This document shows, one piece after another, positions 1,647 through 6,641 of a stretch of 6,641 nt of DNA. The notes below the pieces were generated by a model, which was not told the origin of the DNA, ran no database searches, and worked only from the letters and a program-made list of their open reading frames with translations. The translations under genes were made by a program, and so were the position numbers. The stretch's first letter is position 1. Every line of letters starts with the position of its first letter. Source of the stretch: Candidatus Helarchaeota ASGARD archaeon Hel_GB_B (GTDB lineage: Archaea; Asgardarchaeota; Lokiarchaeia; Helarchaeales; HEL-GB-B); assembly GCA_005191425.1 (NCBI GenBank), contig SUPR01000148.1, positions 1 to 6,641 of the forward strand, in the 5' to 3' direction.

Positions 1647-3515
1647 ATGGGTAATGGAATTATGAATCGGTTTGTACGAGTAGATTTATCTTCTCGACAA
1701 ATTGAAATAAAACAAAATTATGAAGAAAATTTCAAGTTATATTTAGGCGGTATGGGCATTGGAACAGCCATTATATGGGATACAGTTAAAAAATATGTTT
1801 CTGAAGGAATTAATTTAGCCAAAATGGACGCCTTAGACCCAAAAAATGTTTTGGTCTTTGCAGTGGGGCCAGGTACTGGCGTAGCTGGGTTTCCATCAGG
1901 TGGGCGTCATCATATTATGGCTCTTAAATCTCCATTAACTGGGTCAATTGGTTCTGCCAATTCCGGTGGTAAATGGGGTGCCTATCTTAAATCAGCTGGG
2001 TTTGATGGGATCGTTCTTAATGGAAAAGCTGATAAACCAGTCTATCTAACTTTATTTAATGGTAAAGTTGAATTTCACGACGCAAGCGATTTATGGGGAA
2101 AAGATGTCCATGAAACTACTGATATTTTGTTTAAACGACATAACAATGAGGGGTTTGAAATATCTATAGCTTGTATTGGTTCTAATGGTGAAAATGGGAA
2201 ACCCAATTCTGCTATTGTAAATGATTTCCACCGAGCAGCAGGTAGGACCGGAGTCGGTGCTGTAATGGGGTCTAAAAATCTAAAGGCTATTGTCGTGGGA
2301 GGTAATCAAAAAGTTGAAATTGCTCAGCCTGAAAAATTTAAAGAATATTCCAAGATTGCACTGACTAAATTAAAAGATAATGGAGTCACAGGTGAAGGTC
2401 TTCCAACTTATGGGACTGCAGTTTTAGTTAATATTATTAATAATATCGGATCATTGCCATTACATAACTGGCAGAGTGCCTATTCTGAGGAAGCAGAAAA
2501 AATCTCTGGGGAAACTCTAACTGAAAAATATCTAATTAAAAAGAATCCTTGCTGGGGATGTGCTATAGGTTGTGGACGAATATCTTATGTTAAAGATGGT
2601 CCATTTGCTATTGATCGTACTGAAGGCCCTGAATATGAATCTATTTGGGCATTGGGAAACTCTTGTGGGGTTCATGATATGGGTGCAGTTATCATGGCTA
2701 ACCATTTATGCGATAAATATGGTCTTGATACTATTACCACTGGAAGTACTATTGCATGTGCTATGGAATTAGCTGAAAAAGGATATATTCCAAAGGAAGA
2801 TTATGAAAATATTGATTTAAAATTTGGTAATGGAGAAGCTCTAGTAGAATGCGTCCGATTAATGGGCGAACAAAAAGGGTTCGGATTAAAACTACTTGAA
2901 GGCTCTCGAAAATTAGCTGAAATGTATGGACACCCTGAACTTAGTATGTCTGTTAAAGGTCTCGAAATGCCTGCTTATGACCCTCGTGGAATTAAAGGTA
3001 TTGGACTAAATTATGCAACTGCAAATAGAGGTGGATGTCATGTCACTGGATATACTGTATCTCCAGAAGTAATTGGACTTCCTGAAGAAATTGATCGCCT
3101 AGACTATAGTAGTAAACCTACTTGGGATAAAATTTTCCAAGATTTTACTGCAACTGTTAATTCTGTTGTTAATTGTTTGTTTACCACATTCGCTTTAGGT
3201 GCTGAAGATTTTGCAAACTTACTTTCTGCTGTAACAGGTTGGGAACTTACAGACCAAGATATTTTAACTATTGGTGAACGAATATATAATACTCAACGCT
3301 TAATAATGGAGAAATTAGGGATTAAAGACCAAGATACTCTTCCTGAACGTATTTTAAAAGACCCTCTCCCAGATGGACCTTCCAAGGGAGAAATATGCGA
3401 ACTTGATAAAATGCTCGGTGAATATTATAAACTTCGCGGATGGGATGAACATGGCATTCCAACACCTAATAAAATTAAGGAATTAGGTATTGATGACTTC
3501 AAACTATTAATTTAA
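1647..3515 (+). CDS. aor: Tungsten-containing aldehyde:ferredoxin oxidoreductase (AOR sensu stricto), 622 aa
   Basis: Colinear with the recalled Pyrococcus furiosus AOR: RFVRVDLS, KSPLTG..ANSGG, AGFDGIV..GKADKPVY, NDFHRAAGRTGVGAVMGSKNLKAI, GLPTYGTAVLVNIIN, the [4Fe-4S] ligands CWGCAIGC (C302/305/309) plus NCLF (C510), EGPEYESIWALG, CDKYGLDTI, PAYDPRG, NRGGCH, DTLPERIL, YYKLRGW. Start moved from 1602 to ATG 1647 because of the GGTGA site and the family N-terminus. Confidence 0.97.
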   Translation: MGNGIMNRFVRVDLSSRQIEIKQNYEENFKLYLGGMGIGTAIIWDTVKKYVSEGINLAKMDALDPKNVLVFAVGPGTGVAGFPSGGRHHIMALKSPLTGSIGSANSGGKWGAYLKSAGFDGIVLNGKADKPVYLTLFNGKVEFHDASDLWGKDVHETTDILFKRHNNEGFEISIACIGSNGENGKPNSAIVNDFHRAAGRTGVGAVMGSKNLKAIVVGGNQKVEIAQPEKFKEYSKIALTKLKDNGVTGEGLPTYGTAVLVNIINNIGSLPLHNWQSAYSEEAEKISGETLTEKYLIKKNPCWGCAIGCGRISYVKDGPFAIDRTEGPEYESIWALGNSCGVHDMGAVIMANHLCDKYGLDTITTGSTIACAMELAEKGYIPKEDYENIDLKFGNGEALVECVRLMGEQKGFGLKLLEGSRKLAEMYGHPELSMSVKGLEMPAYDPRGIKGIGLNYATANRGGCHVTGYTVSPEVIGLPEEIDRLDYSSKPTWDKIFQDFTATVNSVVNCLFTTFALGAEDFANLLSAVTGWELTDQDILTIGERIYNTQRLIMEKLGIKDQDTLPERILKDPLPDGPSKGEICELDKMLGEYYKLRGWDEHGIPTPNKIKELGIDDFKLLI

Positions 3516-3529
3516 AATAATAAATCCTG

Positions 3530-3550
3530 TTTTTTATTTTTTTTATTTTT
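3530..3550 (+). terminator. Oligo-T archaeal-type terminator after aor
   Basis: T6-A-T8-A-T5 run beginning 14 nt after the aor stop, with no GC hairpin. Confidence 0.55.
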
Positions 3551-3578
3551 CAATATTTTAATTCTTTTTAGTCATAGA

Positions 3579-3583
3579 GAGGA
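3579..3583 (+). promoter_or_regulatory. Ribosome-binding site (GAGGA) of the radical SAM/SPASM gene
   Basis: GAGGA ends 10 nt before ATG 3594. Confidence 0.5.
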
Positions 3584-3593
3584 TTTTATTATA

Positions 3594-4916
3594 ATGAAAA
3601 CATTTCCGAAAATTCTACAAATTGAGCCAACTACACATTGCAATTTTCACTGTAAAATGTGTATTCGCAGGTCTTGGAATGAAAAAATTACTAATTTTCC
3701 GCTAGACCTCTTTGAAAGTTTGGCCAGTCAACATTTTTCTAAATTATACCGTGTTATTTTTATGGGTATCGGTGAAGTCCTTACTCACCCACATTTTCTT
3801 AAATTTATTGAAATTGCTGCAAAATATTTACCTGATAATGGGAAAATTGAATTTAGTACTAATGGCAGCTTGTTGACGCCAGAAATCACGGATAAAATTT
3901 TACAAGCTGGTCAAAAAAAATTAGACCGTATAATCGTCTCATTAGAAACCCCATTTCTGGCAAAATTAAAACATATTAGACCCGAGGCTGGTGAATATCT
4001 TTTTGATAATCTTAAATACTTAGGTAAACAATTTCAACAAGGTAAATTTTCAAACTTGGCTATTGAATCTGTTATTATGAAATCAACTTTATACGACCTT
4101 CCCGATCTTGTATCTTTTTGCTCTAAAATACCTATTAAATCCCTTTATATTACCCACATATTGCCCCATACTCCAGAAATGATCTCCGAAACTCTTTATT
4201 CGACTACATCCTCTGAAGTTTGGTCTATGGGCAAAAAATTTGTTGAAGAGAGCTGGAATGCTCAGAAAAAAAGTATTATTAATTTAGCATTAAAACCTGC
4301 TTATGGTGAATTTAGCGAAGAACGAAAAATTCTTGGAAATTACCTCTTATTTCTATTGCAATCATTCCGCGATAAAAGCTTTTCATCGGGTCTTAGCATA
4401 AATTTCGATAAAATCATTCAAGTTTCTAAAAAATTTGAAATCTTCCAAGATGTCACAAAAATTTTTTCTCAAGCTCAAAAAATAGCACATCAATCTAATA
4501 TTTATTTAGAATTACCTCCTTTATTTCCTAGCTTCTTCTCTCGCACCTGCCCCTATGTTAAACGAAGCGCTGCTATTATTAATGTCCACGGCGATGTAAT
4601 TCCTTGCTTTAATTTTATGCACCATTCTATTACTTATGTTAATGGCCACATGCGAGAAGAACGAGTAAAATCATTTGGAAATATTAACAATCAAGATTTG
4701 GCTGATATCTGGCAATCACCTCAATATAAAGAATTTCGCGATAGATTACATAATGATCATTTCTCTGAAAAAATTCCATGGTGCGGAGACTGCCCTTACT
4801 CTACAGCAAATTGTTTCTATACAAATTCTAATGAATCTGATTGCTATGGCAATTCCCCCGGCTGCAATGAATGTCTTTATAGTGGAGACCTTATAAAATG
4901 TATTTTTGATCCCTAA
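3594..4916 (+). CDS. Radical SAM/SPASM-domain protein, putative metalloenzyme (tungsten-cofactor oxidoreductase) maturase, 440 aa
   Basis: IEPTTHCNFHCKMC (CxxxCxxC, C16/20/23), FMGIGEVLTHP, FSTNGSLL, IVSLE. C-terminal SPASM-like region RTCPY...GDVIPC...FGNI...IWQS...Y..FR, then Cx2Cx6Cx9Cx6Cx2Cx8C. Architecture and context resemble the recalled TIGR04311 (rSAM_Geo_metal) and TIGR04317 (W_rSAM_matur) families. The exact family needs an HMM search. Confidence 0.9.
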   Translation: MKTFPKILQIEPTTHCNFHCKMCIRRSWNEKITNFPLDLFESLASQHFSKLYRVIFMGIGEVLTHPHFLKFIEIAAKYLPDNGKIEFSTNGSLLTPEITDKILQAGQKKLDRIIVSLETPFLAKLKHIRPEAGEYLFDNLKYLGKQFQQGKFSNLAIESVIMKSTLYDLPDLVSFCSKIPIKSLYITHILPHTPEMISETLYSTTSSEVWSMGKKFVEESWNAQKKSIINLALKPAYGEFSEERKILGNYLLFLLQSFRDKSFSSGLSINFDKIIQVSKKFEIFQDVTKIFSQAQKIAHQSNIYLELPPLFPSFFSRTCPYVKRSAAIINVHGDVIPCFNFMHHSITYVNGHMREERVKSFGNINNQDLADIWQSPQYKEFRDRLHNDHFSEKIPWCGDCPYSTANCFYTNSNESDCYGNSPGCNECLYSGDLIKCIFDP

Positions 4917-4948
4917 TTATTTCTAAACTTTAAAAAACGGACGATAAA

Positions 4949-5266
4949 ATGACCAATAATAAAATTAAAATAGAATTTTCGGTTTTTGCAAACTTAAGAA
5001 ATATTTTAGGGTTTAAAACTAAAATAATTGAAATCTCTCCAGGAATAACTATAGTTCAATTTCTAAAATTTGTCCGGGATAACTTACCCAATGGTCAATC
5101 CTTCTATAATGCAGTCTTTGATAAAAAAAACCAGCAAATTAAACCTTATATGCGGTTTATTATTGATGGTCATATTGTCCTAAAACATGAAATTAATACC
5201 TATCAAATCCCCGCAGATTGTAAAACTATCGCAGTCTTTCCTCCTGTAGGTGGTGGATTTATATAG
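4949..5266 (+). CDS. moaD: MoaD/ThiS/SAMP family ubiquitin-like sulfur-carrier protein, 105 aa, with C-terminal GG followed by FI
   Basis: N-terminal KIEFSVFANLRNILG, internal FIIDGHIV and C-terminal IAVFPPVGGG match the beta-grasp MoaD/SAMP pattern. It starts 32 nt after the radical SAM stop. The symbol marks the family, not a proven orthologue. Confidence 0.88.
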   Translation: MTNNKIKIEFSVFANLRNILGFKTKIIEISPGITIVQFLKFVRDNLPNGQSFYNAVFDKKNQQIKPYMRFIIDGHIVLKHEINTYQIPADCKTIAVFPPVGGGFI

Positions 5267-5585
5267 CCAAATAATGTGTCTAAAATTAATTTTTAATTTT
5301 AAAACTAAAAAAAATCTCTCTCTATTTCTCAAAGAAATATAAGGAAAGTTACATTCTTTTGAACTTACTATGTATTGACTTCCCGATAATCCACATTCAA
5401 ACATATAATTTCATTTTGAAATTCTACGATTTAACCCATATTTAGAAATAATAAATGAATTCGTTATTAAATATTATATTTCATATTTTAATACATGAAT
5501 TTTATTATATTCACTTAATATCCATTGAGTTATTTTATTTCTATATTTATTTTACGGAAAAATATAAAAAATCCATTGAATTCAT

Positions 5586-6089
5586 TTATTTTCTATTTTC
5601 AAAAAAATTTTTCAATTTAAAATATTCTCCTTTCCAGCGTTCTAAGACCATCATTTCTCCTTTTGATAGGGCATTATTTCCAAAATACGAGTCCAACATT
5701 AATATATAATTACTAAAGAATTTCCAGTGCTGTTGTATTCCAATATTGTCGTTTGCATTAAGTGCCATAGAGAGATATTTATATTCCATAGGGATTCCGT
5801 TAATAAGTCCAATTTTTATTATGTTATTTTTCAAGGTAGGCGGAATAAATAAGTTAATGCGTTTAAGAAGTTTTTCAATATCTTCGATTGGCTTGATTAA
5901 TAAATTTACAAGACCTTTACCGGCATAATATTCTGCATATTGTAAATTTTCGACTACATCCCTTCTTATCTCTTTAATCTCTTGTATTTGAAGAAAATTC
6001 TTTCTAACATATTCGTCAAGATTTTTTTCAGAGATTTTCCCACAAACATAATAGCTCAATTGCTCCCTTTGAGCATCACTTATTGTCAT
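5586..6089 (-). CDS. Hypothetical protein, 167 aa
   Basis: Open frame with soluble-protein composition (many K, E, I, L, N) in a region where non-coding DNA is full of stops. ATG at 6089 is preferred over GTG 6098. No family motif recognised. Confidence 0.75.
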   Translation of the reverse strand: MTISDAQREQLSYYVCGKISEKNLDEYVRKNFLQIQEIKEIRRDVVENLQYAEYYAGKGLVNLLIKPIEDIEKLLKRINLFIPPTLKNNIIKIGLINGIPMEYKYLSMALNANDNIGIQQHWKFFSNYILMLDSYFGNNALSKGEMMVLERWKGEYFKLKNFFENRK

Positions 6090-6099
6090 AATTTTCACA

Positions 6100-6641
6100 A
6101 AAATTTTATATTTAATAAGATTTTTTCATTAATTTATTAAAAAATTTGATCAATCAATTAATTCATTAATTAAATAGTATTTACTTAATTGTAATATTGT
6201 GATCAATTCATTATTTTTAAATTTTAACACAATTTTAACTATTTAATTGATTTTTTTACCGATGATAATTTTTGAAAAAAAAGATTACTTGGGTGCTATA
6301 AATATTAAATATATAATCTCTTAAAGTGTATCAAATAAATTCTTAATTCTTTATGATTGAGTTATGAAAAATACAATTTTAAAAAATAAAAAATATTAAA
6401 TGCAATTTTTAAGAAATCAATTATCATGTATATTTATCGAATACAAACTTCAATATCTCTGATAGATGAAATTTTGAATTCTTTCAAGTTTATCTTAAAG
6501 ATAATTGCTTAAATTTTAAAAAGATAATGTAAAACTATTATAAAATTAAAAAATATTAAAATAAAAAAATAAACACATAACAAATTTTTAGGAAAAATTC
6601 ATTTCCAATAGAAATCTTTTTTTATCACAAATTTAAATTTT
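6100..6641. other. Very AT-rich non-coding region (upstream region of the orphan gene)
   Basis: Hand count gives 79 G+C in 521 nt for 6121-6641 (about 15% GC). No ORF in the track. It contains several short palindromes and degenerate repeats. Confidence 0.7.

Follow-up and report, generated by a model that had tools for sequence, protein, structure and literature searches.

Why would an archaeon keep a radical S-adenosylmethionine (SAM) gene and a sulfur-carrier gene directly behind one gene for a tungsten enzyme? The question is raised by contig SUPR01000148.1 (C57) of Candidatus Helarchaeota archaeon Hel_GB_B, whose 6,641 bases make up the entire stretch analysed here (the window). It belongs to a metagenome-assembled genome (MAG) of 3.54 Mb with 28% GC, and the nearest relatives of its proteins are labelled Promethearchaeota or Helarchaeota. 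Three genes follow one another on the + strand: a gene for an aldehyde:ferredoxin oxidoreductase (AOR; 1647–3515), a gene for a radical SAM/SPASM protein of 440 residues (3594–4916) and a gene for a MoaD-type beta-grasp sulfur carrier of 105 residues (4949–5266). The gaps of 78 nt (3516–3593) and 32 nt (4917–4948) are confirmed by open reading frame (ORF) listing and translation. A first-pass annotation, made from the letters alone, had read the trio as a candidate maturation module dedicated to the tungstoenzyme. Conserved linkage, co-occurrence and AOR-clade specificity support that idea, and we conclude that the trio is probably an accessory module dedicated to a single clade of tungsten AORs.

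To our knowledge, no catalysts outside the AOR family are known to reduce unactivated carboxylic acids, and obtaining AOR-family enzymes in active form is difficult. As far as we know, the presence of a radical SAM gene next to aor was recognised in 1995, and no reaction has yet been assigned to its product; the aor-cmo pair of Pyrococcus furiosus is reportedly due to Kletzin et al. in that year, and a literature search on cmo returned no match. The trio itself is widely conserved and has already been described, and the window is a further example of it, not a new system. Hidese et al. (2024) described tk1066 (AOR), tk1065 (the MoaD-family protein UblC) and tk1064 (radical SAM) of Thermococcus kodakarensis and suggested a role for them in AOR cofactor maturation (PMC11323500). 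The same three gene types are adjacent there and in the window, the likeness being one of gene types. The window differs from the Thermococcales trio in coming from an Asgard archaeon, and the P. furiosus AOR lacks the clade signature described below (it has D in pterin motif 2 and no loop insertion). The new points are modest: an uncurated archaeal radical SAM subfamily, its restriction to one AOR clade, and, in this lineage, a carrier tail after Gly-Gly.

Conservation of the linkage and the AOR clade it follows

How firmly are the three genes held together in other genomes? One genome per prokaryotic species was scanned with a profile of 30 radical SAM sequences, and the 80 loci obtained were scored against custom profiles of all three proteins. 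Loci with a profile score of at least 400 bits and flanks of at least 2.5 kb were taken as orthologous (n = 35). In 32 of the 35 the radical SAM gene has an AOR gene no more than 1.5 kb away; a MoaD-like gene is present too in 23, and three have neither nearby. The arrangement thus recurs elsewhere, as a neighbourhood survey proposed in the first-pass annotation was meant to establish, and the AOR-radical SAM linkage exceeds chance. No MoaD gene is near nine of the 32 AOR-linked loci; since the radical SAM gene is tied more closely to the AOR than to MoaD, a carrier encoded in cis is not obligatory.

Gene order varies across at least five archaeal phyla (AOR-radical SAM-MoaD, AOR-MoaD-radical SAM, or divergent), the lineages with the trio being Asgard, Bathyarchaeia, Thermoproteota, Hadarchaeota and Nitrososphaeria. 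The order is AOR-radical SAM-MoaD in Promethearchaeum syntrophicum and a Helarchaeota MAG and AOR-MoaD-radical SAM in two metagenome contigs; a Njordarchaeia MAG has its radical SAM and AOR genes in divergent orientation, and MoaD lies there beyond the AOR gene. The radical SAM gene turned up in 18 of 121 Asgard genomes. It is accompanied in 17 of these by an AOR match at E 1e-170 or better, and the eighteenth has only a fragment, at a contig end.

The linkage follows a particular kind of AOR. Maximum-likelihood analysis groups 42 of the 44 linked AORs with the window AOR in a single clade (support 100/99), and the 12 other AOR paralogs of the window genome all fall outside it; that genome has 13 full-length AOR paralogs against a sole copy of the linked radical SAM gene. 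A quicker FastTree run included 16 further AORs, all from Asgard genomes in which no radical SAM gene of this kind was detected. Of these, 13 branch immediately beside the linked clade but not within it; of the three that group inside, one is from a 2.4 kb contig and the others are from genomes 85% and 95% complete. These placements tie the helper to one AOR clade and indicate that closely related AORs exist without it. Expression of a clade AOR probably needs the helper, and that of sister AORs does not. In all three unlinked exceptions a clade AOR is still in the genome: it lies elsewhere in the two Thermofilaceae, and in Lokiarchaeum ossiferum (L005, about 2.644–2.660 Mb) the trio is spread over about 14 kb, with the AOR gene 8.8 kb upstream and the MoaD gene 3.4 kb downstream of the radical SAM gene. 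The part of that 8.8-kb stretch that was fetched holds ORFs with at most a faint Pfam match.

Could the genes simply be expressed together, MoaD being the housekeeping small subunit of molybdopterin synthase placed beside its main client and the radical SAM enzyme working in an unrelated pathway? No canonical MoaD can be distinguished among the six beta-grasp proteins of the genome, and distant radical SAM relatives (about 260–290 bits) occur in other contexts, such as beside an SBF/ACR3-type transporter gene in five bacterial loci; both would fit such co-regulation. We nevertheless regard it as very improbable, given that the linkage to one AOR clade outlasts rearrangement across several phyla, that the two genes co-occur in 17 of 18 genomes, and that a second MoaD-like gene of the genome lies about 3–5 kb from two MoeA genes and MoaC on contig C130.

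The distant radical SAM relatives (250–400 bits; Archaeoglobi and bacteria of the sulfate-reducer type) are AOR-linked in one of 13 loci, and functional conclusions are therefore confined to the orthologous group. Five of these relatives (about 260–285 bits; L053, L055, L056, L058 and L059), from MAGs of Deltaproteobacteria/Desulfobacterales type, are encoded directly behind a gene whose representative, that of L058, is an SBF/ACR3-family transporter gene, with an overlap or a gap of up to about 40 nt and no AOR nearby. In two Archaeoglobaceae MAGs (L076, L082) a MoaD-like gene overlaps the start of a short-form radical SAM relative and is followed by genes for a PF04060 Fe-S/ferredoxin protein and for a 400-residue protein of no family, again with no AOR within 7 kb. 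Members of the radical SAM family occur in the cultured Promethearchaeum syntrophicum, Lokiarchaeum ossiferum, Desulfurococcus amylolyticus, Thermofilum and Archaeoglobus veneficus, in which it is open to experiments.

The linked AOR and its radical SAM/SPASM partner

What kind of AOR does the radical SAM gene accompany? The AOR ORF opens at 1602, from which residue numbers are counted here; its likely start is the ATG at 1647, which has GGTGA 5 nt upstream and agrees in an alignment with the N-terminus of the P. furiosus AOR. The protein scores far over the Pfam cut-offs (AFOR_N 224 bits against 29.8, E 1e-66; AFOR_C 485 bits against 27, E 1e-145), and its closest solved relative is 1AOR (607 bits, with FOR at 269 and WOR5 at 222). 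On these matches it classes as a tungsten-type aldehyde:ferredoxin oxidoreductase of the P. furiosus AOR type. Two D-x-x-G-L-(C/D) motifs bind the pterin in AORs, as in the 1AOR structure; a literature search on the motif gave no match. The first is intact in the window AOR (D-K-Y-G-L-D). The [4Fe-4S] ligands C317, C320, C324 and C525 align with C288, C291, C295 and C494 of 1AOR, and the catalytic E346 and H480 with its E313 and H448, where the roles of the P. furiosus residues are partly presumed. In the Clostridium autoethanogenum AFOR, E312 and H448 are confirmed in these roles (PMC12727526).

Columns of an alignment of 46 clade members were compared with those of 13 sister AORs and of the 12 paralogs of the window genome, and 13 of them set the linked clade apart from its sisters. 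Four are in the loop H103–N120 (HHIMALKSPLTGSIGSAN; 1908–1961, + strand), namely M106, a one-residue insertion at L108, S115 and S118. This loop sits between residues aligned to R76 and N93 of the P. furiosus AOR, which we take, after the 1AOR structure paper, to be ligands of the cofactor phosphate and Mg. Two more fall in the second pterin-binding motif, N520-S-V-V-N524-C525 (3159–3176, + strand), which reads N-S-V-V-N-C in all 46 clade AORs against D-S-x-G-x-C in other AORs: position 520 is N in 46 of 46 clade AORs and D in 13 of 13 sisters, as well as in the solved AORs 1AOR, 9MQX, 9G7J and 8C0Z. Six of the 13 clade-defining substitutions are thus in two short segments that presumably bind the cofactor.

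And what is the partner? The radical SAM/SPASM protein passes the two Pfam models of a hidden Markov model (HMM) check proposed for it in the first-pass annotation (PF04055 Radical_SAM, 61.4 bits against a cut-off of 29.5; PF13186 SPASM, 57.1 against 21.5), whereas the two curated NCBIfam models named there prove to be related but stay below threshold (TIGR04317, W_rSAM_matur, 247.7 bits against 380, E 1e-73; TIGR04311, rSAM_Geo_metal, 242.1 against 400, E 1e-71). These are its best two family matches and share its radical SAM plus SPASM architecture; NCBIfam titles them tungsten cofactor oxidoreductase radical SAM maturase and radical SAM/SPASM putative metalloenzyme maturase, respectively. 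The neighbour implied by the first name, a tungsten-cofactor oxidoreductase, is there, the AOR gene lying 78 nt upstream. TIGR04311 aligns end to end (1–423 of 423) and therefore covers the helical insert described below, and TIGR04317 (349 positions) matches in two stretches and therefore is without this insert of about 90 residues. Ten relatives score 130–310 bits against TIGR04317, and neither cut-off is reached by any of 11 tested members of the archaeal family. With such scores we regard the family as an uncurated archaeal sister, that is, a third subfamily. The best 120 profile matches listed all stay within it. Its members are annotated just as 'radical SAM protein' or, in L. ossiferum, as 'GTP 3',8-cyclase', which is probably a misannotation; genome annotations are uninformative because current curated family models miss the entire archaeal subfamily. 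A role as MoaA replacement was rejected, because a canonical MoaA (Radical_SAM plus Mob_synth_C) is encoded on contig C36.

The cluster motif of the SAM domain, C16-x3-C20-x2-C23 (3639–3662), is invariant among 30 aligned sequences. In the same alignment the SPASM pattern C319-x13-G333-x4-C338 is followed by seven further conserved Cys, giving nine in all (C319, C338, C397, C400, C407, C417, C424, C427 and C436; 4548–4901), and this region could bind two auxiliary clusters. An AlphaFold model (pLDDT 91, pTM 0.89) places a four-helix insert at about residues 207–300 (4212–4493), between the core and the SPASM domain; insert and nine-Cys pattern are specific to the family. The radical SAM domain begins at residue 5 and so leaves no space for an N-terminal peptide-recognition domain. 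No member of the subfamily was found in a profile search of solved structures, in which BtrN was best (76 bits), and fold searches of the PDB, AlphaFold clusters and the ESM Atlas returned generic radical SAM/SPASM proteins (TM about 0.5) or cluster mates and no substrate clue. The core fold and an auxiliary-cluster domain are held in common with BtrN, MoaA, anSME, SuiB, SkfB, BlsE and DesII, but at 12–18% identity and TM-scores of about 0.4–0.5, so that no substrate can be transferred. A complex prediction for the enzyme and the MoaD-like protein with clusters and SAM gave no verdict and is used neither way.

What, then, does the enzyme act on? It might be a maturase that, in the manner of anSME, gives the AOR polypeptide a post-translational modification peculiar to the linked clade, with MoaD merely supplying pterin sulfur. 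This would suit the SPASM architecture with its nine conserved Cys, the presence of the modifiers anSME, SuiB, SkfB and CteB among the fold matches, the tighter linkage to AOR than to MoaD, and the invariant clade-specific S115, S118 and inserted residue in a conserved AOR loop. We think it rather unlikely, since the small-molecule enzymes BtrN, BlsE and DesII score equally or better and no single candidate target residue stands out. Nor do we know of a modified residue in the other solved AORs, none of the solved enzymes belonging to the linked clade. The passages describing the C. autoethanogenum AFOR at 1.59 Å mention none either (PMC12727526).

A second kind of substrate would be either the pterin cofactor itself or one of its intermediates, acted on before or during insertion. 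Given that the trio is a dedicated module, action of the radical SAM enzyme there is quite possible, if short of an even chance, and a peptide substrate is less likely; the cofactor is favoured because there is no room for N-terminal peptide recognition, small-molecule enzymes match equally well, and the signature sites are in what we take to be cofactor-binding segments. That the archaeal subfamily makes a distinct tungstopterin for one AOR clade, or installs it differently, is a long shot. The cofactor pocket of the clade is presumably re-tooled by the Asp to Asn change of motif 2 and by the residue inserted in the loop taken to bind phosphate and Mg; on this reading the cofactor would not be common to all AOR-family enzymes. 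The Asn of motif 2 may still hydrogen-bond the pterin.

The sulfur carrier, pterin synthesis and the case for a module

Where does the carrier fit? It exceeds the Pfam ThiS cut-off (PF02597, 26.2 bits against 22.5) and lies under the curated cut-offs for moaD (TIGR01682, 21 against 66 bits), moaD_arch (TIGR01687, 27.6 against 49.5) and SAMP1 (NF041918, 34.4 against 60). Its C-terminus, FPPVGG-G102-G103, is followed by a two-residue tail, F104-I105 (5258–5263). In an alignment of 27 AOR- or radical-SAM-linked partners F97, P98, P99, G102 and G103 are invariant, and the majority of orthologues terminate exactly at GG. The tail after GG implies either C-terminal processing or tolerance of the tail. 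An assembly error was rejected as its origin, for the same F-I occurs in an independent assembly (L112) whose carrier differs at five other residues. A few other orthologues also run past GG (+A, +N, +LSPHTL, +SANLRGVYNE, +RIFRGVKRDR). The family's FPPxxGG ending resembles what we take to be the C-terminus of E. coli MoaD. With the 27-partner profile the closest solved relatives are Ta0895 (hypothetical), 1VJK, 2M19 and a SAMP1 homologue, with E. coli MoaD also matched; 1VJK and 2M19 are both titled molybdopterin converting factor subunit 1.

In T. kodakarensis deletion of ublC halved molybdopterin and, in sulfur-poor medium, lowered AOR activity to about 54% and abolished FOR activity; elemental sulfur restored everything (PMC11323500). 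These data point to ordinary molybdopterin sulfur supply (PMC11323500), a role that the window carrier most likely shares and that has been shown for one counterpart, UblC. The bacterium Aromatoleum aromaticum likewise has MoaD-like accessory genes, aorD and aorE, beside its tungsten AOR in aorABCDE, and with aorDE added the recombinant AOR reached 16 U/mg, up from 4.5 (PMC9295118); unlike the window, this operon encodes a three-subunit AorABC, and no radical SAM gene has been described in it.

Is the trio, alternatively, a piece of the general pterin pathway? The first-pass annotation held that it is not simply a pterin-biosynthesis operon, as moaA, moaE and moeB were missing from the window. 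Pfam and NCBIfam searches agree, such genes being on other contigs of the assembly, and about 80 loci show no MoaE, MoaC or MoaA gene up to 7 kb from the radical SAM gene; an E1-like gene and MoeA occur there in only two loci each. Canonical MoaA and MoaE are encoded on contig C36, MoaC, two MoeA proteins and another MoaD-like protein on C130, and six E1-like genes and seven JAB-domain matches occur elsewhere in the genome. In their passages on this family Iyer, Burroughs and Aravind (2006) reported MoaD genes strictly adjoining AOR genes, apart from the molybdenum cofactor (Moco) operon, and suggested for them a part in producing the molybdopterin of the AOR tungsten cofactor (PMC1779556), and the corresponding passage of Makarova and Koonin (2010) confirms the AOR-linked MoaD for archaea (PMC2948915). 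The frequent neighbours given in these passages, MoeB, MoaE, MoeA and a pyridine disulfide oxidoreductase, are in contrast nearly absent around the window-type trio (PMC1779556, PMC2948915). The same passages name no SPASM radical SAM partner, and the 2010 paper does not use the term 'radical SAM' (PMC2948915).

The C130 genes form a loose Moco cluster. A 96-residue MoaD-like protein ending in PIEGG is encoded next to genes for a CobW-type GTPase and a MiaB-like methylthiotransferase; the two MoeA genes, MoaC and a JAB-domain gene lie within about 7 kb, the MoaD-like gene being about 3–5 kb from MoeA and MoaC.

A closer cooperation of the two partners, as the first-pass annotation imagined, would have the radical SAM enzyme use the MoaD thiocarboxylate for an extra sulfur insertion, giving for example a terminal sulfido or sulfhydryl ligand on tungsten, or modifying the carrier itself. 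The two genes are indeed 0–30 nt apart in most Bathyarchaeia loci, and the pair persists in the Archaeoglobaceae relatives without a nearby AOR. The radical SAM enzymes known for sulfur insertion, on the other hand, belong to other subfamilies as far as we know. [quoted passage not shown] We rate this cooperation as quite unlikely, because nine of the 32 AOR-linked loci have no MoaD gene nearby.

How would a dedicated module work? Catalysis would fall to the AOR, which would hold a tungsten-bis-pterin cofactor besides its [4Fe-4S] cluster. The two-residue tail of the carrier would be removed first, a candidate for processing by a JAB protease, and the carrier would be adenylated by an E1-like enzyme encoded elsewhere. 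Its C-terminal thiocarboxylate would then deliver sulfur to MoaE, encoded on another contig, and so to the pterin dithiolene for the clade AOR, while the radical SAM/SPASM enzyme, with one SAM-cleaving cluster, would perform a radical step of hydrogen abstraction that the clade AOR needs. Each biochemical step of this scheme is one that we infer; the gene content, the conservation of the linkage, the clade specificity and the location of the core pterin genes elsewhere are observations.

Several points weigh against this scheme. Peptides or proteins are common substrates of SPASM enzymes, and the best fold matches include SuiB, SkfB and anSME. The tail of the carrier would block adenylation unless processed. 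The curated MoaD cut-off is reached by none of the six beta-grasp proteins of the genome, so that a housekeeping MoaD is not identifiable. Sister clades with no radical SAM gene show Asn in place of the corresponding Asp of motif 1, and the Asp to Asn change of motif 2 is the trait of a single clade and thus a single evolutionary event; on both grounds we downgrade this change to weak evidence for a different cofactor. Moreover, a radical SAM gene, cmo, is presumably beside the P. furiosus AOR, which has none of the signature changes. Sister Asgard AORs, one of them in a 100%-complete genome, are without a radical SAM match, and active Aromatoleum AOR was made from a plasmid carrying aorABCDE alone (PMC9295118). 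Since related AORs function without the radical SAM enzyme, its step is not universally required.

Transcription, flanking DNA and further loci of the genome

Right behind the AOR stop codon lies a T-rich tract (T6, T8, T5; 3530–3550, + strand), which may be an oligo-T terminator or attenuator of the archaeal type separating the AOR gene from the radical SAM-MoaD pair. GAGAGGA stands 10 nt before the start of the radical SAM gene, and with the tract it suggests that the pair may also be transcribed separately. In T. kodakarensis tk1065-tk1064, the carrier and radical SAM genes, are a transcription unit of their own (PMC11323500). Rfam and tRNA scans of the window gave nothing above threshold.

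Upstream, divergent from the AOR gene, a B12-binding (cobalamin-type) radical SAM gene occupies 3–1403 on the minus strand. With it the genome counts about 20 paralogs of the kind, and it is not kept beside the trio in other genomes; the best curated matches of its product, HpnJ and BchE, are both far under their cut-offs. Downstream, the DNA from 5300 to 6641 is AT-rich (19–26% GC) and may be non-coding or lineage-specific; it contains an 84-residue low-complexity ORF (5455–5709, + strand) and a 170-residue ORF with no family match (5586–6098, minus strand).

Two other contigs of the genome bear carrier-like genes in different company. On C142 (L089, 7112–10502, minus strand) there is a second link between an AOR and a carrier: a gene for a 615-residue AOR paralog is followed downstream by one for a 163-residue poly-ferredoxin and preceded, about 0.7 kb upstream on the same strand, by one for a 106-residue MoaD/Urm1-like protein ending in FGGG, with no radical SAM gene. 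The pairing of ferredoxin and AOR is reminiscent of two subunits of the Aromatoleum enzyme, AorA and AorB. On C123 (L090, 3462–5135) a 64-residue SAMP2/ThiS-like protein is encoded about 0.5 kb upstream of a small GTPase of the Gtr1/RagA family, a eukaryote-like protein typical of Asgard archaea.

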